64,000 nt of DNA, from NCBI RefSeq assembly GCF_013315695.1, contig NZ_CP054353.1. One strand, given 5' to 3'. Under the pieces are notes generated by a model, which did no database searches, was not told the origin of the DNA, and saw only the letters and a program-made list of their open reading frames with translations. This DNA is from Escherichia coli. Its GTDB lineage: Bacteria; Pseudomonadota; Gammaproteobacteria; Enterobacterales; Enterobacteriaceae. The number at the start of each line of letters is the position of its first letter. The first letter of the stretch is position 1. The position numbers and the translations under genes were made by a program. This document shows, piece after piece, positions 3,520 through 21,275 of this stretch.

Positions 3520-5550
3520 ATGAAACTCGCCGCCTGTTTTCTGACACTCCTTCCTGGCTTCGCCGTTGCCGCCAGCTGGACTTCTCCGGGGTTTCCCACC
3601 TTTAGCGAACAGGGGACGGGAACATTTGTCAGCCACGCGCAGTTGCCCAAAGGTACGCGTCCACTAACGCTAAATTTTGACCAACAGTGCTGGCAGCCTG
3701 CGGATGCGATAAAACTCAATCAGATGCTTTCCCTGCAACCTTGTGGCAACACGCCGCCTCAATGGCGATTGTTCAGGGACGGCGAATATACGCTGCAACT
3801 AGACACCCGCTCCGGTACACCAACATTGATGATTTCCATCCAGAACGCCGTCGAACCGGTAGCAAGCCTGGTCCGTGAATGCCCGAAATGGGATGGATTA
3901 CCGCTCACACTGGATGTCAGCGCCACTTTTCCGGAGGGAGCCGCCGTCCGGGATTATTACAGCCAGCAAATTGCGATAGTGAAGAACGGTCAAATAACGT
4001 TACAACCCGCTGCCACCAGCAACGGTTTACTCCTGCTGGAACGGGCAGAAACTGACGCCTCTGCCCCTTTCGACTGGCATAACGCCACGGTTTACTTTGT
4101 GCTGACAGATCGTTTCGAAAACGGAGATCCCAGTAATGACCAGAGTTACGGACGTCATAAAGACGGTATGGCAGAAATTGGCACTTTTCACGGCGGCGAT
4201 TTACGCGGCCTGACCAACAAACTGGATTACCTCCAGCAGCTGGGCGTCAATGCTTTATGGATAAGTGCCCCATTTGAGCAAATTCACGGCTGGGTCGGCG
4301 GCGGTACAAAAGGCGATTTCCCGCATTATGCCTACCACGGTTATTACACACAGGACTGGACGAATCTTGATGCCAATATGGGCCGCGAAGCCGATCTACG
4401 GACGCTGGTTGATAGCGCGCATCAGCGCGGTATTCGTATTCTCTTTGATGTCGTGATGAACCACACCGGTTATGCCACACTGGCGGATATGCAGGAGTTT
4501 CAGTTTGGCGCGTTATATCTTTCTGGTGACGAAGTGAAAAAAACGCTGGGTGAACGCTGGAGCGACTGGAAACCTGCCGCCGGGCAAACCTGGCATAGCT
4601 TTAACGATTACATTAATTTCAGCGACAAAACAGGCTGGGATAAATGGTGGGGAAAAAACTGGATCAGAACCGATATCGGCGATTACGACAATCCTGGATT
4701 CGACGATCTCACTATGTCGCTGGCCTTTTTGCCGGATATCAAAACCGAATCAACGACCGCTTCTGGTCTGCCGGTGTTCTATAAAAACAAAACGGATACC
4801 CACGCTAAAGTCATCGACGGCTTTACCCCTCGCGATTACTTAACCCACTGGTTAAGTCAGTGGGTCCGCGACTATGGGATTGATGGTTTTCGGGTCGATA
4901 CCGCCAAACATGTTGAGTTGCCCGCCTGGCAACAACTGAAAACCGAAGCCAGCGCCGCGCTTCGCGAATGGAAAAAAGCGAATCCCGACAAAGCATTAGA
5001 TGATAAACCGTTCTGGATGACCGGTGAAGCCTGGGGCCACGGCGTGATGCAAAGTGACTACTATCGCCACGGCTTCGATGCGATGATCAATTTCGATTAT
5101 CAGGAGCAGGCGGCGAAAGCAGTCGATTGTCTGGCGCAGATGGATACGACCTGGCAGCAAATGGCGGAGAAATTGCAGGATTTCAACGTGTTGAGCTACC
5201 TCTCATCGCATGATACCCGCCTGTTCCGCGAAGGTGGTAATAAAGCAGCAGAGTTATTGTTATTAGCGCCAGGCGCGGTACAAATCTTTTATGGTGATGA
5301 ATCCTCGCGTCCGTTCGGCCCCACCGGTTCGGATCCGCTGCAAGGTACGCGTTCGGATATGAACTGGCAGGATGTTAGCGGTAAATCTGCCGCCAGCGTC
5401 GCGCACTGGCAGAAAATCAGCCAGTTCCGTGCCCGCCATCCCGCAATTGGCGCGGGCAAACAAACGACACTTTCGATGAAGCAGGGCTACGGCTTTGTTC
5501 GTGAGCATGGCGACGATAAAGTGCTGGTCATCTGGGCTGGGCAACAGTGA
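3520..5550 (+). CDS. malS: periplasmic alpha-amylase MalS
   Basis: 676-aa ORF with signal peptide and GH13 alpha-amylase motifs (FDVVMNH, GFRVDTAKH). Confidence 0.9.
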   Translation: MKLAACFLTLLPGFAVAASWTSPGFPTFSEQGTGTFVSHAQLPKGTRPLTLNFDQQCWQPADAIKLNQMLSLQPCGNTPPQWRLFRDGEYTLQLDTRSGTPTLMISIQNAVEPVASLVRECPKWDGLPLTLDVSATFPEGAAVRDYYSQQIAIVKNGQITLQPAATSNGLLLLERAETDASAPFDWHNATVYFVLTDRFENGDPSNDQSYGRHKDGMAEIGTFHGGDLRGLTNKLDYLQQLGVNALWISAPFEQIHGWVGGGTKGDFPHYAYHGYYTQDWTNLDANMGREADLRTLVDSAHQRGIRILFDVVMNHTGYATLADMQEFQFGALYLSGDEVKKTLGERWSDWKPAAGQTWHSFNDYINFSDKTGWDKWWGKNWIRTDIGDYDNPGFDDLTMSLAFLPDIKTESTTASGLPVFYKNKTDTHAKVIDGFTPRDYLTHWLSQWVRDYGIDGFRVDTAKHVELPAWQQLKTEASAALREWKKANPDKALDDKPFWMTGEAWGHGVMQSDYYRHGFDAMINFDYQEQAAKAVDCLAQMDTTWQQMAEKLQDFNVLSYLSSHDTRLFREGGNKAAELLLLAPGAVQIFYGDESSRPFGPTGSDPLQGTRSDMNWQDVSGKSAASVAHWQKISQFRARHPAIGAGKQTTLSMKQGYGFVREHGDDKVLVIWAGQQ

Positions 5551-5727
5551 CTTTTCCGGCTTCCCGTTCGTCAGTACCTCGGGAAGCCGCCAACCAGGAT
5601 AAAATGTCAGCTCTAATCAGCGTTGCAGGATAAAGCACCGCTCCCTCTTCAACAGAGCGATTTGCACCCCAGCAAATGTAGCGTTATTGTTACCTTCCTT
5701 GCTACAGAGTTCGACAGATATCCCGCT

Positions 5728-6981
5728 ATGACATTCTCCCTTTTTGGTGACAAATTTACCCGCCACTCCGGCATTACGCTGCTGATGGAAGATCTGAACG
5801 ACGGTTTATGCACGCCTGGCGCGATTATGCTCGGCGGCGGTAATCCAGCGCAGATCCCGGAAATGCAGGACTACTTCCAGACGCTACTGACCGACATGCT
5901 GGAAAGTGGCAAAGCGACTGATGCACTGTGCAATTACGACGGTCCACAGGGGAAAACGGAGCTCCTCACACTGCTTGCCGGAATGCTGCGCGAGAAGTTG
6001 GGTTGGGATATCGAACCACAGAATATTGCACTAACAAACGGCAGCCAGAGCGCGTTTTTCTACTTATTTAATCTGTTTGCCGGACGCCGTGCCGATGGTC
6101 GGATCAAAAAAGTGCTGTTTCCGCTGGCACCGGAATACATTGGCTACGCTGACGCCGGACTGGAAGAAGATCTGTTTGTCTCTGCGCGTCCGAATATTGA
6201 ACTGCTGCCGGAAGGCCAGTTTAAATACCACGTCGATTTTGAGCATCTACATATTGGCGAAGAAACCGGGATGATTTGCGTCTCCCGGCCGACGAATCCA
6301 ACAGGCAATGTGATTACTGACGAAGAGTTGCTGAAGCTTGACGCGCTGGCGAATCAACACGGCATTCCGCTGGTGATTGATAACGCTTATGGCGTCCCGT
6401 TCCCGGGTATCATCTTCAGCGAAGCGCGCCCGCTGTGGAATCCGAATATTGTACTGTGCATGAGTCTTTCCAAGCTGGGACTACCGGGTTCGCGCTGCGG
6501 CATTATCATCGCCAATGAAAAAATCATCACCGCAATCACCAACATGAACGGCATTATCAGCCTGGCGCCTGGCGGTATTGGTCCGGCGATAATGTGTGAA
6601 ATGATTAAGCGTAACGATCTGCTGCGCCTGTCTGAAACAGTCATCAAACCGTTTTATTACCAGCGTGTTCAGGAAACTATCGCCATCATTCGCCGCTATT
6701 TACCGGAAGATCGCTGCCTGATTCATAAACCGGAAGGAGCCATTTTCCTCTGGCTATGGTTTAAGGATTTGCCGATCACTACCGAGCAGCTTTACCAGCG
6801 CCTGAAAGCACGCGGCGTGCTGATGGTACCGGGGCACAACTTCTTCCCAGGGCTGGATAAACCGTGGCCACATACACATCAATGTATGCGCATGAACTAC
6901 GTGCCGGAGCCGGATAAAATTGAGGCGGGTGTGAAGATTCTGGCGGAAGAGATAGAAAGAGCCTGGGCTGAAAGCCATTAA
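5728..6981 (+). CDS. avtA: valine-pyruvate aminotransferase AvtA
   Basis: 417-aa PLP aminotransferase starting MTFSLFGDKFTRHSGI; the six-frame ORF extends further upstream with no conserved sequence. Confidence 0.85.
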   Translation: MTFSLFGDKFTRHSGITLLMEDLNDGLCTPGAIMLGGGNPAQIPEMQDYFQTLLTDMLESGKATDALCNYDGPQGKTELLTLLAGMLREKLGWDIEPQNIALTNGSQSAFFYLFNLFAGRRADGRIKKVLFPLAPEYIGYADAGLEEDLFVSARPNIELLPEGQFKYHVDFEHLHIGEETGMICVSRPTNPTGNVITDEELLKLDALANQHGIPLVIDNAYGVPFPGIIFSEARPLWNPNIVLCMSLSKLGLPGSRCGIIIANEKIITAITNMNGIISLAPGGIGPAIMCEMIKRNDLLRLSETVIKPFYYQRVQETIAIIRRYLPEDRCLIHKPEGAIFLWLWFKDLPITTEQLYQRLKARGVLMVPGHNFFPGLDKPWPHTHQCMRMNYVPEPDKIEAGVKILAEEIERAWAESH

Positions 6982-8443: not shown

Positions 8444-8643
8444 TTTGTCGCGTCCTGATGGTAGCGCAAAGTGTGCCGTAGTTCACGATCTCGACAGATA
8501 ATTTATAACCACTTGATTTTTAAGTTTTTTGAAATTCATCAATCAGATTGCTTTGTTAAAAAGTGATCGATATATTTGAAATCAAGTTTCGTATATTGAA
8601 ATTTTAAGCCAAAAAAGCGATCAAAAAAACAAGGAAGCCTGGG

Positions 8644-9642
8644 ATGAAAGTGACATTTGAGCAGTTAAAAGCAGCCTTTAATCGGGTCTTAATTTCACGC
8701 GGCGTTGACAGCGAAACGGCTGACGCCTGTGCAGAGATGTTCGCCCGCACCACCGAATCCGGCGTTTATTCTCACGGCGTTAATCGTTTCCCTCGTTTCA
8801 TTCAACAACTGGAAAACGGCGATATCATTCCTGATGCCCAACCCAAACGTATAACCAGCCTCGGCGCAATTGAACAGTGGGACGCTCAGCGTTCGATCGG
8901 TAACCTGACAGCGAAAAAGATGATGGATCGCGCCATTGAACTGGCTGCCGATCACGGTATTGGTCTGGTGGCACTACGTAATGCCAACCACTGGATGCGC
9001 GGCGGCAGCTACGGCTGGCAGGCGGCGGAAAAAGGCTATATTGGCATTTGCTGGACCAACTCCATCGCCGTAATGCCGCCGTGGGGCGCAAAAGAGTGTC
9101 GCATCGGCACCAACCCGCTGATCGTCGCCATTCCTTCTACCCCAATCACCATGGTCGATATGTCGATGTCGATGTTCTCTTACGGCATGTTAGAAGTTAA
9201 CCGTCTGGCAGGCCGTCAGCTCCCGGTCGATGGTGGCTTTGATGATGAGGGCAATTTGACCAAAGAACCTGGCGTTATCGAGAAGAATCGCCGCATTTTG
9301 CCGATGGGCTACTGGAAAGGTTCTGGCATGTCGATTGTGCTGGATATGATCGCCACTCTCCTTTCCGACGGCGCATCGGTTGCCGAAGTCACCCAGGACA
9401 ACAGCGACGAATACGGCGTTTCGCAAATCTTTATCGCCATCGAAGTGGATAAATTGATCGACGGCCCCACCCGCGATGCCAAGCTGCAACGCATCATGGA
9501 TTACGTTACTACCGCTGAACGCGCTGACGAAAACCAGGCCATCCGCTTACCCGGCCACGAATTTACTACCCTGCTGGCCGAAAACCGCCGTAACGGCATC
9601 ACCGTTGATGACAGCGTGTGGGCCAAAATCCAGGCGTTATGA
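8644..9642 (+). CDS. yiaK: 2,3-diketo-L-gulonate reductase YiaK
   Basis: 332-aa Ldh_2-family dehydrogenase; first gene of the yiaK-S operon. Confidence 0.85.
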
Positions 9643-9650
9643 GGAGATAA

Positions 9651-10121
<471 letters not shown>

Positions 10122-10238
10122 TCGAATAATCGTCTACGCCAGAACGCCTGGGTAATGTTATTGCTCTAACTATATTAATAATTTAGGTTGCTGCACATGC
10201 AACTTGAATTATGACAGACATAGCCTCAAGGAATAGCT

Positions 10239-10712
10239 ATGAAAAAAATACTTGAAGCAATACTGGCGATTAATCTCGCCGTACTTTCCTGTATTGTGTT
10301 TATAAACATTATTTTAAGATATGGTTTTCAGACAAGCATTTTATCTGTAGATGAATTGTCACGTTATTTATTTGTCTGGTTAACATTTATTGGCGCGATT
10401 GTGGCTTTTATGGATAACGCCCACGTTCAGGTCACCTTTCTGGTGGAGAAACTCTCCTCCGCATGGCAGCGACGAGTCGCTCTGGTTACCCATTCCTTAA
10501 TCTTATTTATTTGTGGCGCACTGGCCTGGGGCGCAACGCTAAAAACAATTCAGGACTGGAGCGATTATTCACCGATCCTCGGTTTGCCCATCGGCCTGAT
10601 GTATGCCGCTTGTCTGCCCACCAGCCTCGTTATCGCATTCTTTGAACTGCGTCATTTATATCAACTCATCACGCGTAGCAATTCTCTAACGTCGCCACCG
10701 CAAGGAGCTTAA
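10239..10712 (+). CDS. yiaM: TRAP transporter small permease YiaM
   Basis: 157-aa membrane protein directly upstream of the large permease. Confidence 0.85.
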
Positions 10713-16692: not shown

Positions 16693-16723
16693 TCCCTCAC
16701 GCCGGGGCTTCATCGCCCCGGCA

Positions 16724-17539
16724 CTACGAATTGATATGTTCCTTGCTGTAACGCCGCTTCCACGCTGCTGGCGTTAAACCAGTGTGTTTGCGAAAAATCT
16801 GCCGGAAATAGCCAACGTCATTAAACCCGCACAACGCCGCCACTTCAGTGAGCGATCGCGCTTCGCTAATTAACAGCTTTTCGGCTTCGCGCACTCGCTG
16901 GCGATGAATTGCTTCTGTTAACGTCAGATGAAACACCCGCCGATAGACGCGCCCAAGATAATCGGCATTGCAGTACAGCTCGCGGGCTAAAAGCGCCGTG
17001 GAAAGCGGGCGGTGATATTGCGTGCGAATCAGTTTCTGTGCTTTCCAGGCAAGGGTGGTGCCTGCACCATCGGCCTGTTCATCAAGACGCGCGTCACGGG
17101 TGAGCTGCTGCAAAATCAGCAGCACAATAAACTCCAGCGCCGGAGTGCGTTGATGCTTTTCCTGTTCGCTTAAGAACTGGCGAAACAAGGCCACCAGCAC
17201 CTGCGGATCGGCAACCTTAGTTTGTTGCGGCACGCTAAGATGAGTGAGCCAGCGCGGATCGTTGTCCGGCGCTTTAACCTCAAAATGCAGCCAGTAAAAT
17301 TTGAGATCGGCGGGAAAATCCTCCACCCCAACATGCTGTCGGTTCGGCCAGAGTAATAAACTCTCTCCCGCATCGACCAGAAATATCCGCTCTTCTTCCT
17401 GAATCGCTAATCGACCTTTTTCGACAAAGATAATTTCCCATGACTCCAGCCGCCTTGCCGGATGCCTCCCTACGCCACGGGAAATAAATAATCCACCATT
17501 TTGCACTTTAATCGGTAACGTCATGGATAATTCGAGCAT
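16724..17539 (-). CDS. AraC/XylS-family transcriptional regulator (accessory sugar-utilisation cassette)
   Basis: 271 aa; N-terminal cupin-like sensor and C-terminal AraC HTH; divergent from the transporter gene. Confidence 0.8.
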   Translation of the reverse strand: MLELSMTLPIKVQNGGLFISRGVGRHPARRLESWEIIFVEKGRLAIQEEERIFLVDAGESLLLWPNRQHVGVEDFPADLKFYWLHFEVKAPDNDPRWLTHLSVPQQTKVADPQVLVALFRQFLSEQEKHQRTPALEFIVLLILQQLTRDARLDEQADGAGTTLAWKAQKLIRTQYHRPLSTALLARELYCNADYLGRVYRRVFHLTLTEAIHRQRVREAEKLLISEARSLTEVAALCGFNDVGYFRQIFRKHTGLTPAAWKRRYSKEHINS

Positions 17540-17587
17540 TGATATGTAATTTCCCGCTTATTCATTAATGATTAAACACATTACCTT

Positions 17588-17602
17588 TTGATTATTAATC
17601 AA
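17588..17602. promoter_or_regulatory. 7-1-7 inverted repeat TTGATTA-t-TAATCAA in the divergent AraC/transporter promoter region (candidate operator)
   Basis: Inverted repeat read directly in the 225-bp intergenic region. Confidence 0.3.
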
Positions 17603-17764
17603 AAACATTAATTTCACCTGATCCAATTCACACTTTTAAATTCAGGTCGGAATCGTCACCTTTTTTTACTCTTTTCTCGCCTTGTTGATATTCCCGTTCA
17701 CGGCAGAATTAATCATGTCATTGCAATAAAACTAAAAATTGCTCCCTATTCACGAGGAATATCT

Positions 17765-19165
17765 ATGACCTCTACACCGATTACTACCGCTGATATCGCT
17801 AAAGGTAAAATTGACGATGCGTTATCTGTACGGGAAAAAATAGGCTACGGCCTGGGTGACGCAGGCGGCACCGTAATAACTTGCCTGATCATGAACTTTC
17901 TCACCTTTTTCTACACCGACGTTTTTGGCTTAACTCCGGCGCTGGTCGGCACGCTGTTTATTGCACTGCGCGTGTTTGATGCCATCTCCGACCCGGTGAT
18001 GGGCGTCATTGCCGACCGGACGCAAAGTCGCTGGGGGCGCTTTCGTCCGTGGCAGTTATGGATTGCCATTCCCATCGGCATTATCGGCATCCTGACGTTC
18101 ACCGTGCCAGATGCCAGCATGGGAGTAAAAATCGCCTGGGCGTTCGGTACTTACCTGCTCCTTTCAGTCGGTTATACCGCCATCAACGTACCGTACTGCG
18201 CGCTGATCAACACCATGACCACCCGCCACAATGAAGTGATCTCCTGCCAGTCCTGGCGATTCGTTCTCTGCGGCGTAGCGGGATTTCTGGTTTCGGTAGG
18301 CTTACCGTGGATGGTAGATCTCTTCGGGCAGGGTAATGCCGCGCGCGGCTATCAACTGGGCGTCGGCGTATTGTGCGCCATTGCCGTGGTGATGTTCCTG
18401 TGCTGTTTCTTCTGGGTTCGTGAACGGGTGCCGCTCTCCACAATGGGGAAATTTACCCTGCGCGAACATCTTGCCGGGCTGCGGAACAACGACCAACTGC
18501 TGCTGATGCTGGTCATGTCTTTCCTGCTGATTAACGTCTTTAATATTCGCGGCGGTGGGTATATGTACTTCATTACCTACGTCTTACAAGGCAGTACGGG
18601 CTACACGTCGCTGTTCTTCACCATGGTCACCTTCGCCTCCATTATCGGCTCGGTGATTGTCAGCCCATTAACGCGGCGTTTCGATACCGTCAAAATTTAT
18701 TACTACACCAACCTGCTCCTCGCTTCACTGGCGGTGTTGATGTGGTTCCTGCCCTCCGGCCCGGCTTATCAAACGCTGTGGCTGGCGGTGATCCTCGGTA
18801 ATGGCGTGATTCTTGGCTTCACATTGCCACTGCACTTCTCATTGATGGCCTTTGCCGATGACTACGGCGAGTGGAAAACCCGCGTACGTTCTTCCGGCAT
18901 GAACTTCGCCTTCAATCTGTTTTTCATCAAGCTGGCCTGGGCCTCCAGCGCCGGGATCATCAGCCTGCTGTTTATTTTTGTCGCCTACCAGCCAGGCGTG
19001 GAAAACCAGACCACCAGTTCGCTTGGCGGGATCGCGGCGATGGAAACATTGCTGCCTGCGCTGTTCCACCTGCTGCTGGCGATGGCGATCCGCTTTTGCA
19101 AACTCAATAACCCTATGATGTCACGCATTGCTAGCGACCTGCGTCAGCGTCATGTACAGCCTTAA
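17765..19165 (+). CDS. glycoside-pentoside-hexuronide (GPH) family cation symporter, MelB-like
   Basis: 466-aa 12-TM-type protein with N-terminal GYGLGD motif typical of GPH transporters. Confidence 0.8.
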
Positions 19166-19175
19166 GGAGCACAAG

Positions 19176-21155
19176 ATGAACATTTCGGAAGTCGATCTGC
19201 ATAAACTGACGGTCAGCGATCCGTTCCTCGGTCAGTACCAACAACTGGTCCGCGATGTGGTGATTCCTTATCAGTGGGACGCCTTGAACGATCGTATCCC
19301 AGAAGCGGAACCCAGCCATGCGATTGAAAACTTTCGCATTGCCGCAGGACTGCAAGACGGTGAATTTTACGGGATGGTGTTTCAGGACAGCGACGTCGCC
19401 AAATGGCTGGAAGCGGTAGCCTGGTCGCTGTGCCAGAAGCCGGACGCCGAACTGGAAAAAACCGCCGACGAGGTGATTGAACTGATCGCTTCCGCCCAGT
19501 GCGAAGATGGCTATCTCAATACTTACTTTACGGTAAAAGCGCCCGAAGAACGCTGGAGCAATCTGGCGGAGTGTCATGAACTTTACTGCGCCGGTCATCT
19601 GATTGAAGCCGGAGTCGCCTTCTTCCAGGCTACGGGCAAGCGGCGCTTGCTGGAAGTAGTTTGCCGTCTGACCGATCATATCGACAGCGTATTTGGTCCA
19701 GATGAAAGTAAGTTACACGGTTATCCTGGTCACCCGGAAATTGAACTGGCACTAATGCGCCTGTATGAAGTGACCGAAGAGCCGCGCTACCTGGCGTTGA
19801 CGAACTATTTTGTCGAACAGCGTGGTGCGCAACCGCACTATTACGACCAGGAATATGAAAAGCGCGGGCAGACCTCGCACTGGCACACCTACGGCCCGGC
19901 GTGGATGGTGAAAGATAAAGCCTACAGCCAGGCGCATTTGCCCATCGCACAGCAACAAACCGCCATCGGACATGCAGTACGCTTTGTATATCTGATGACT
20001 GGCGTCGCACATCTGGCGCGTTTAAGTCACGATGAAAGCAAGCGTCAGGATTGCCTGCGGCTGTGGAACAATATGGCCCAGCGTCAGTTATATATTACCG
20101 GCGGCATTGGCTCACAAAGCAGCGGCGAAGCGTTCAGCAGCGATTACGATCTGCCGAATGACACGGTTTACGCCGAAAGCTGTGCTTCCATCGGCCTGAT
20201 GATGTTCGCCCGGCGAATGCTGGAAATGGAAGGCGACAGTCAATATGCCGATGTGATGGAGCGCGCACTGTACAACACCGTGCTCGGCGGCATGGCGCTG
20301 GATGGCAAACATTTCTTCTATGTGAATCCGCTGGAAGTACATCCAAAATCGCTGAAATTCAACCATATCTACGATCACGTTAAGCCGATCCGCCAGCGTT
20401 GGTTTGGTTGCGCTTGTTGTCCGCCAAATATCGCCCGCGTGCTAACCTCGATTGGTCATTATCTCTACACGCCGCGTGAAGATGCGTTGTATATCAACAT
20501 CTACGCAGGAAACAGCATGGAAGTGCCGGTAGAAAATGGCACGTTGCGTCTGCGGGTTAGCGGAAACTATCCGTGGCAGGAACAGGTGACAATTGCGGTT
20601 GAATCGCCCCAGCCGGTGCGTCATACGCTGGCTTTACGTCTGCCGGACTGGTGCACACAGCCGCAGATCATATTGAATGGGGAAGAGGTCGAGCAGGATA
20701 TTCGTAAAGGGTATTTGCACATTACCCGCGAATGGCAGGAGGGCGACACGCTGAATCTAACTTTGCCAATGCCAGTACGTCGCGTTTACGGTAACCCGCT
20801 GGTGCGTCACGTCGCCGGAAAAGTGGCGATTCAGCGCGGCCCGCTGGTTTATTGCCTGGAACAGGCCGACAACGGCGAGTCACTGCATAACCTGTGGCTG
20901 CCCGCCGATGCGCCATTTACGACATTTGAAGGTAATGGATTGTTCCGCCATAAGATCTTAATCCAGGCACCGGGTTACCGGTATGAACAGAGCAATCCAG
21001 AGCAGCAACCGCTGTGGCATTACGACAGTGCGCCAGCCAAACGCCAGCCGCAAACTCTGACGTTTATCCCGTGGTTTAGCTGGGCTAACCGGGGTGAAGG
21101 CGAAATGCGGATCTGGGTGAATGAGGAAAAGCATTGCCATCCGGAGGTTGGATAA
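19176..21155 (+). CDS. glycoside hydrolase family 127 (DUF1680) protein, beta-L-arabinofuranosidase-like
   Basis: 659 aa from ATG at 19176 preceded by AAGGAG; contains the GCACCPPN cysteine-rich motif of GH127 enzymes; the six-frame ORF starts 48 bp earlier. Confidence 0.8.
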   Translation: MNISEVDLHKLTVSDPFLGQYQQLVRDVVIPYQWDALNDRIPEAEPSHAIENFRIAAGLQDGEFYGMVFQDSDVAKWLEAVAWSLCQKPDAELEKTADEVIELIASAQCEDGYLNTYFTVKAPEERWSNLAECHELYCAGHLIEAGVAFFQATGKRRLLEVVCRLTDHIDSVFGPDESKLHGYPGHPEIELALMRLYEVTEEPRYLALTNYFVEQRGAQPHYYDQEYEKRGQTSHWHTYGPAWMVKDKAYSQAHLPIAQQQTAIGHAVRFVYLMTGVAHLARLSHDESKRQDCLRLWNNMAQRQLYITGGIGSQSSGEAFSSDYDLPNDTVYAESCASIGLMMFARRMLEMEGDSQYADVMERALYNTVLGGMALDGKHFFYVNPLEVHPKSLKFNHIYDHVKPIRQRWFGCACCPPNIARVLTSIGHYLYTPREDALYINIYAGNSMEVPVENGTLRLRVSGNYPWQEQVTIAVESPQPVRHTLALRLPDWCTQPQIILNGEEVEQDIRKGYLHITREWQEGDTLNLTLPMPVRRVYGNPLVRHVAGKVAIQRGPLVYCLEQADNGESLHNLWLPADAPFTTFEGNGLFRHKILIQAPGYRYEQSNPEQQPLWHYDSAPAKRQPQTLTFIPWFSWANRGEGEMRIWVNEEKHCHPEVG

Positions 21156-21270
21156 GGCGCTCGCGCCGCATCCAACGTAGGGTGCACATTGCCTGATGCG
21201 ACGCTTAACACGTCTTATCAGGCCTACAAGTCGGTGCGAGAGCGTAGGCCAGCCGCACCGACATCCACCG
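21152..21270. repeat. REP/BIME palindromic units between the GH127 gene and yiaT
   Basis: Repeated GC-rich palindromes (gccgcatccaacgtagg, cctgatgcgacgc, cttatcaggcctac). Confidence 0.5.
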
Positions 21271-21275
21271 GTGAA

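Follow-up and report, generated by a model that had tools for sequence, protein, structure and literature searches.

The window, by which we mean the whole 64-kb stretch of DNA analysed here, belongs to an Escherichia coli chromosome, and its positions 16700-19200 are 100% identical to several complete E. coli genomes. In the RefSeq annotation of CE10, the gene order runs yiaM-yiaN-yiaO-lyxK-sgbH(ulaD)-sgbU-sgbE(araD), continues with an AraC-family regulator gene on the opposite strand, an MFS transporter gene and a GH127 glycoside hydrolase gene, and proceeds to yiaT, yiaU, yiaV, yiaW and aldB. The cassette is therefore located between sgbE and yiaT, with the regulator gene (16724-17539, minus strand) facing a transporter/GH127 operon (17765-21155, plus strand). 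The regulator, a protein of 271 aa called AraC family regulator in RefSeq, carries the Pfam domains HTH_18, HTH_AraC and AraC_binding; it reached none of the NCBIfam equivalogs, the top-scoring being AraC (60.6 bits, cutoff 208), and it scored 38.6 bits against the MelR equivalog (cutoff 253). The transporter gene (17765-19165, plus strand) encodes a GPH-family (MFS_2) sugar:cation symporter (Pfam MFS_2, E = 4.5e-73; NCBIfam gph TIGR00792, 333 bits, over the cutoff). The GH127 glycoside hydrolase gene (19176-21155, plus strand; RefSeq start at 19176) encodes three Pfam GH127 domains, a family that Pfam names beta-L-arabinofuranosidase, and its top NCBIfam model, aceric acid hydrolase, scored 456 bits, well under the cutoff of 950. 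In CE10, the annotation gives the GH127 gene (8477-10456 of locus L001) an internal stop and pseudogene status, with the regulator and transporter genes intact; the cassette may be decaying in some lineages.

The 225-bp intergenic region between regulator and transporter genes (17540-17764) is AT-rich, as the preliminary description had stated, with 32% G+C versus 52% in the window, and Pfam and RefSeq bear out its placement as a divergent control region, with an AraC-family regulator gene on one side and a GPH transporter/GH127 operon on the other. Literature searches that combined GH127, E. coli and AraC, or sgbE and yiaT, returned nothing on this locus, and no transcription-start or binding data for it were found in the searched literature.

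The whole cassette is present in ~2,313 of 5,426 complete E. coli genomes (~43%) and is also widespread in Enterobacterales. K-12 strains retain a remnant of ~325 bp (1532-1825 of locus L082) in place of the region corresponding to 16693-21275 of the window. In it, the final 102 nt of the regulator gene and 189 nt of the GH127 gene survive, each annotated as a partial pseudogene; the absence of the cassette there is thus due to a deletion of ~4.2 kb and not to non-acquisition. Among two other genera checked, the cassette also adjoins an sgbE homologue in Salmonella enterica subsp. diarizonae and in Superficieibacter, so its link with a yiaK-S-type operon may predate the genus Escherichia; in both (loci L005 and L018, ~5320-6100), a convergent sgbE/araD-like epimerase gene follows the regulator gene. 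The term 'accessory cassette' used previously is accurate for the E. coli pan-genome but misleading if read as recent acquisition, given the K-12 deletion remnant, this shared sgbE linkage and a cassette G+C content of 53%, like that of the window (52%).

The inverted repeat and its conservation

The feature that had drawn attention to this region is the inverted repeat TTGATTA-T-TAATCAA (7-1-7) at 17588-17602, which is found in the sequence as claimed and extends to a perfect 9-1-9 repeat, TTTTGATTA-T-TAATCAAAA, at 17586-17604. A related half-site said to lie nearby, cattaatgattaa, is also real: the segment TTCATTAATGATTAA at 17561-17575 has 3 mismatches to the 15-mer, and the half-site belongs to a 23-nt imperfect direct repeat with copies at 17561-17583 and 17588-17610 (18/23 matches), the left copy of which is not conserved, information content being approximately zero across orthologues at 17561-17580. 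Chance levels were taken from dinucleotide-preserving shuffles of the 225-bp region. Palindromes with arms of at least 7 and loops of 0-4 arose in 12% of shuffles, so the 7-1-7 repeat as first described is not unusual; arms of at least 9 arose in 1.2% (P ~0.012) and a direct repeat of at least 18/23 in 1.25% (P ~0.0125). For a single region, the full 9-1-9 repeat is moderately unusual, a figure not corrected for the number of intergenic regions that 64 kb contain, and statistical support for the repeat is weak to moderate.

Because the E. coli intergenic region is at least 98% identical across all 2,321 genomes carrying it, E. coli itself offers no test of constraint, and constraint was read from orthologues. 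An orthologue scan with one genome per species gave 80 loci, 78 of which have a full-length regulator gene facing the transporter gene; nearly all of these 78 also carry GH127, and the divergent arrangement is the same throughout. The regulator orthologues across Enterobacterales share 58-93% identity, and the 78 intergenic regions, compared in window orientation, come from ~25 enterobacterial genera, including Escherichia (E. whittamii), Citrobacter, Salmonella (S. diarizonae), Pseudescherichia, Enterobacter, Kluyvera, Leclercia, Lelliottia, Klebsiella, Raoultella, Kosakonia, Yokenella, Pantoea, Mixta, Trabulsiella, Buttiauxella, Cedecea, Mangrovibacter, Hafnia and others. The conserved positions cluster in islands at 17541-17560, 17589-17598, 17619-17635, 17643-17687 and 17703-17713, and at the transporter ribosome-binding site.

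Only the left arm and centre of the palindrome fall within such an island, as an asymmetric core, TGATTATT(A/C)A (17589-17598), that reads T(T/G)AATAATCA on the minus strand. The TGATTATT part is invariant or nearly so in ~65 of the 78 loci, and the left-arm and centre bases T, G, A, T, A and T are invariant in all 66 motif-bearing loci; the motif is missing from the other 12, all of which keep the regulator, the transporter and a 45-bp block described below. The right arm behaves differently. At 17600 (position +5), where a C would pair with the invariant G at 17590, the 66 loci have C in 16, G in 25, A in 17 and T in 8, and at 17599 (position +4), T occurs in 31 and C in 29. Enterobacter species with otherwise near-identical regions show AATCAATA, AATAAATA, AATTAATA and AATGAATA, so that 17600 takes all four bases among close relatives and behaves as a neutral position. 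Across 49 non-redundant loci, the left arm holds 13.7 bits versus 9.8 bits for the right arm, pair 5 (G-C) is retained in 11 and the 7-1-7 repeat is complete in 5. Strong conservation of the left half means that it is probably functional. The palindromic extension occurs in Escherichia, Citrobacter amalonaticus, some Enterobacter, Yokenella and one Kosakonia, and the evidence favours the view that the palindrome is not itself a functional unit but extends, variably and in some lineages only, an asymmetric element that is conserved.

Copies of either element elsewhere were sought in the window, and no second copy of the palindrome or of the conserved 10-mer was found at up to 2 mismatches; matches with 3 mismatches are scattered, mostly in coding sequence. 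An extra match to the 10-mer recurs at ~5564 in three of 81 loci (L005, L018 and L034), where it is coincidental because it lies inside conserved coding sequence of the sgbE/araD homologue. The octamer ATTAATCA of the palindrome right arm (17594-17601) appears again at 17708-17715, in the predicted transporter -10 region. Each of the two predicted -10 regions, taken on the coding strand of its gene, has the sequence AAT(w)AATCA, which may be mere AT-rich promoter composition.

The proposal that the palindrome is the operator of the AraC-type regulator does not hold up on site geometry, conservation and position. Sites of AraC-family proteins are asymmetric and ~18 bp long, each taken by one monomer whose two helix-turn-helix motifs enter adjacent major grooves (PMC2377442). 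We therefore looked for ~17-18 bp per monomer, with direct or inverted pairs ~21 bp or more apart, and found instead a symmetric element of 15-19 bp with half-site centres 8-10 bp apart; such a palindrome could hold just one monomer, so its symmetry is meaningless for an AraC-family protein. The symmetry itself is lost in most orthologues, the core is absent from 12 of the 78 loci whereas the 45-bp block is present in all of them, and the repeat centre (17595) is ~121 bp upstream of the predicted transporter start, whereas AraC/XylS-family sites that serve activation adjoin or overlap the -35 of their promoter. Better operator candidates, conserved in all 78 loci, are found at 17617-17632 and 17643-17687. 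What stands of the preliminary description is thus the divergent control region and, in the palindrome, its conserved left half.

Predicted control map of the divergent region

From the pattern of conserved islands and spacings, we infer two divergent promoters, each with its start site, and DNA binding by both CRP and the regulator. Read on the regulator strand, the core is T(T/G)AATAAT-CA and contains a -10-like hexamer, AATAAT, running from 17596 to 17591, that matches the sigma-70 -10 consensus TATAAT at 5/6 positions, including the -11 A and the -7 T. The sole hexamer variants among the 66 loci, GATAAT in Mixta and GATATT in Trabulsiella, both keep these two bases. The motif lies 49 ± 1 nt from the regulator ATG in ~65 loci and 39 nt from a conserved TCACA. 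In the 12 motif-less loci, other conserved -10-like hexamers are present on the regulator strand ~19 bp nearer the ATG, namely TACACT in Buttiauxella, Cedecea, Atlantibacter and one 'C. freundii', CATAAT, inside TGATTATG, in Mangrovibacter, and TAAAAT in Hafnia. A -10-like hexamer is thereby conserved, or apparently functionally replaced, at a plausible start-codon distance upstream of the orthologous regulator gene; an interchangeable island of this kind upstream of one gene is what is expected of a promoter element, not of the operator of a conserved regulator. On this comparison, the -10 element of the regulator gene's own sigma-70 promoter is the most likely identity of the conserved half, at about even odds. 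AATAAT is seldom the top-scoring -10-like hexamer in this AT-rich stretch, so the assignment comes from conservation and not from the score. The conservation also exceeds the hexamer, since 8-10 bases including the downstream CA are invariant, which is more than a -10 element needs and fits a protein-binding site too.

From this hexamer, regulator transcription would start near 17584 and give a leader of ~45 nt. The leader ends in a conserved segment, AAGCGGGAAATTACATATCA-ATG (17541-17560, minus strand; orthologue consensus atATTcAnnTTCCCGCTttt), which probably serves ribosome binding on the regulator transcript and may alternatively be a regulator site. A scan of 17400-17900 for consensus promoters and terminators on both strands found no strong sigma-70 promoter, no -35 element and no terminator. 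The empty promoter scan counts against the predicted promoters; at the transporter promoter it is expected because the promoter would be activator-dependent. The predicted regulator promoter would likewise be without a usable -35, for which a CRP-like site ~40 bp upstream would substitute, a class II arrangement known for melR.

That site is the CRP-like 16-mer CCTGATCCAATTCACA (17617-17632, centre 17624.5), nominated by conservation and position. The conserved island here, cGATC-N5-TCACAnTTT (17619-17635), has TCACA in all 78 loci and GATC in 77 at a fixed distance. The match to the CRP consensus (8/10 core positions, 14/22 overall) is not significant by itself (shuffle P 0.07-0.11). Relative to the predicted starts, the centre lies at ~-40.5 for the regulator and ~-91.5 for the transporter, and in the divergent, motif-less group at ~-59.5 for the regulator; the distances of -40.5 and ~-59.5 are near the class II and class I positions of CRP but miss the canonical -41.5 and -61.5 by 1-2 bp. 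We retain a candidate CRP site on these grounds. Likeness to part of the 17645-17667 segment means that 17617-17632 could instead be a regulator site, or could serve both CRP and the regulator. The GATC within the element (17620-17623) is a Dam methylation site, replaced by GACC in the one exception, S. diarizonae, and is kept even though this half (cGATC) departs from the CRP consensus.

The highest information content of the region is found in a near-invariant 45-bp block, CAGGTCGGAATCGTCACCTTTTTTTACTCTTTTCTCGCCTTGTTG (17643-17687, plus strand), with the consensus cAGGTCGGAATCGTCAyCTTTTTATACTTTTCCCTTCCCTTGTTG, which reaches over a -35-like TTGTTG; GTCGGAAT and CTTGTTG are present in 78/78 loci with invariant spacing. 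Direct repeats occur at an offset of 21 bp (TCACCTTTTT from 17656 and TCGCCTTGTT from 17677), of 25 bp (GATCnnAATC from 17620 and GGTCGGAATC from 17645, with 9/10 matches in Enterobacter) and of 28 bp (TCACAnTTTT and TCAyCTTTTT), which makes 17620-17687 the best candidate for regulator half-sites. By analogy with AraC I1-I2 and MelR sites 2/2', the block itself would be the best candidate for the binding region of the AraC-family regulator. Downstream of it, we predict a transporter/GH127 promoter with a weak -35, TTGTTG (17682-17687, plus strand), 16 bp upstream of a -10, CAGAAT (17704-17709, plus strand), that has A at -11 and T at -7. A GCAGAAT-type heptamer is present at a fixed distance in 75/78 loci, within an island of consensus GCAGAATwAAT (17703-17713). 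Transcription would start near 17716, and the 5' UTR would extend from there to 17764 and evolve freely. The 45-bp block would then fill -73 to -29, where AraC, RhaS and MelR bind to activate. The araBAD, rhaBAD and melAB operons share this classic layout (PMC2377442 for mel).

The conserved elements are held at nearly constant distances in the 78 loci: 88 (range 85-89) from the regulator ATG to TCACA, 18 from TCACA to GTCGGAAT, 35 from GTCGGAAT to CTTGTTG and 22 from CTTGTTG to GCAGAAT. The sole length-variable stretch, of 50-111 nt, runs from GCAGAAT to the transporter ATG, which fits a 5' UTR beginning there. Within it, Klebsiella, Raoultella and Citrobacter loci (L042, L044, L046 and L050-L060) contain an inserted G+C-rich hairpin, for example CCCGCAACGTAGCGGG, and Buttiauxella izardii (L065) a ~140-bp insertion of REP/BIME appearance (...GTAGGTCGGATAAGCG...CATCCGACA...). 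Upstream of it, a control region of ~170 bp (17540-17715; loci L002-L079) is fixed in length, non-conserved stretches included.

Promoter elements by themselves do not account for spacing that stays rigid across non-conserved sequence. The 10-mer might act, besides its likely role as a -10, as an anchor of a rigid ~170-bp nucleoprotein complex formed by the regulator with or without CRP, a proposal that we consider unlikely on present evidence. If true, the complex would span the distance from the regulator leader to the transporter promoter, like the four-MelR repression complex, and would explain why spacings, including that to the start codon, are fixed over ~25 genera despite drift between the anchors.

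Other readings of the conserved half and of the palindrome

A reading that we regard as possible, though still on the unlikely side, is that the core and its flanks (~17581-17600) are an asymmetric ~18-bp monomer site through which the regulator represses its own promoter, in the manner of MelR site R or AraC O1, perhaps in a fixed-geometry complex with sites in 17620-17687. The 8-10 contiguous conserved bases, together with a conserved T at 17581-17582, go beyond the needs of a -10; the element sits at -2 to -20 of the predicted promoter, which suits repression; and it keeps rigid distances to the start codon and to all other elements. For repression by MelR, helical phasing is important (PMC2377442). 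Against this reading, TGATTATTAA shows just weak, AT-driven similarity to the near-invariant block on either strand, the motif is missing in 12 loci that retain both regulator and block, and a monomer with two helix-turn-helix motifs is expected to leave two patches ~8 bp apart, whereas one strong patch is seen.

Two further readings concern the symmetry that Escherichia has and most orthologues lack. It is improbable, in our assessment, that the palindrome in Escherichia is the operator of a dimeric global factor or unlinked repressor that acts on the -10 and shuts off the cassette, even though the 9-1-9 repeat is perfect (P ~0.012), is identical in E. coli, E. whittamii and C. amalonaticus, recurs with at least 7 pairs in some Enterobacter, in Yokenella and in Kosakonia arachidis, and overlies the predicted -10, where a repressor would work. 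Symmetry is gone in most orthologues, the key C varies among close relatives, and the window holds no second copy at up to 2 mismatches. TTGAT and ATCAA correspond to the half-sites of FNR, but FNR and CRP sites have fixed spacings, TTGAT-N4-ATCAA and TGTGA-N6-TCACA respectively, and the repeat has TTGAT-N5-ATCAA, a change of spacer to which the fixed-geometry CRP/FNR family is intolerant. A palindromic site of that family was accordingly set aside, on its N5 spacer and on a right half-site whose C is kept in 16 of 66 loci. Neither the conserved half nor the spacing is known to fit the consensus of Fur, Cra, IHF, Fis, ArcA or NarL, the ARG box of ArgR (5-4-5, compared with 5-3-5 here) or the RcsAB box, whose core GAATAATC is present in a Klebsiella/Citrobacter subgroup only. 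Least credible of all is a transcript hairpin or DNA cruciform acting on termination, stability or supercoiling-dependent promoter activity. The single-stranded DNA folds at -4.6 to -4.8 kcal/mol (z -3.7 to -4.6 versus shuffles), but the stem, almost wholly A-T, is weak on an absolute scale, the scan for terminator-like features was empty, and the pairing is neither conserved nor accompanied by a compensatory pattern; Rfam searched at permissive E-values over 17300-18000 matched no RNA family.

We favour, with a probability of roughly 0.55, an account in which an accidental palindrome has formed on an asymmetric -10 element within a conventional sugar-operon control region. At araBAD, the AraC activator occupies ~-35 to -75 as direct-repeat half-sites 21 bp apart, with CRP near -90 and the divergent araC promoter just beyond. 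The layout predicted here is alike, and AraC is the best-scoring named relative of the regulator, albeit far under the equivalog cutoff; the candidate half-sites, also 21 bp apart, bear no resemblance to araI, and no distal O2-type site is evident. The likeness of the repeat to an FNR site, by contrast, ends with the inverted pentamers: its spacer is 5 bp where FNR has 4, and orthologues do not conserve the right pentamer.

The melR-melAB system, the nearest precedent, also pairs an AraC-family regulator gene with a divergent GPH-symporter sugar operon. There, CRP overlaps the -35 of the regulator promoter, and MelR occupies asymmetric 18-bp sites, one monomer each (PMC2377442). Points in common with the map predicted here are a regulator promoter that has a CRP or CRP-like site in place of a -35, activator sites that reach the operon -35, and site spacing that matters (PMC2377442). 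The two differ in that the mel starts are 237 bp apart, compared with a predicted ~132 bp within the 225-bp region here, in that mel has two CRP sites versus a single CRP-like site, in that no equivalent of MelR site R was identified at this locus, and in that the regulator is not a MelR equivalog; melR-melAB is, moreover, known from experiment, and this locus from sequence alone.

The evidence favours reading this region as a conventional example of divergent sugar-operon control of the AraC-plus-CRP class, rather than as a new operator. Its practical value is small, and nothing in it should surprise a specialist. More generally, perfect palindromes in AT-rich promoters can arise by accident where an asymmetric element is conserved. 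For this locus, attention shifts from the palindrome to 17589-17598, 17617-17632, 17643-17687 and 17704-17709 (17703-17709 with the preceding G) as targets of footprinting and promoter mapping, and the predicted control map may be a starting point for reporter constructs that seek the substrate and inducer of the cassette.
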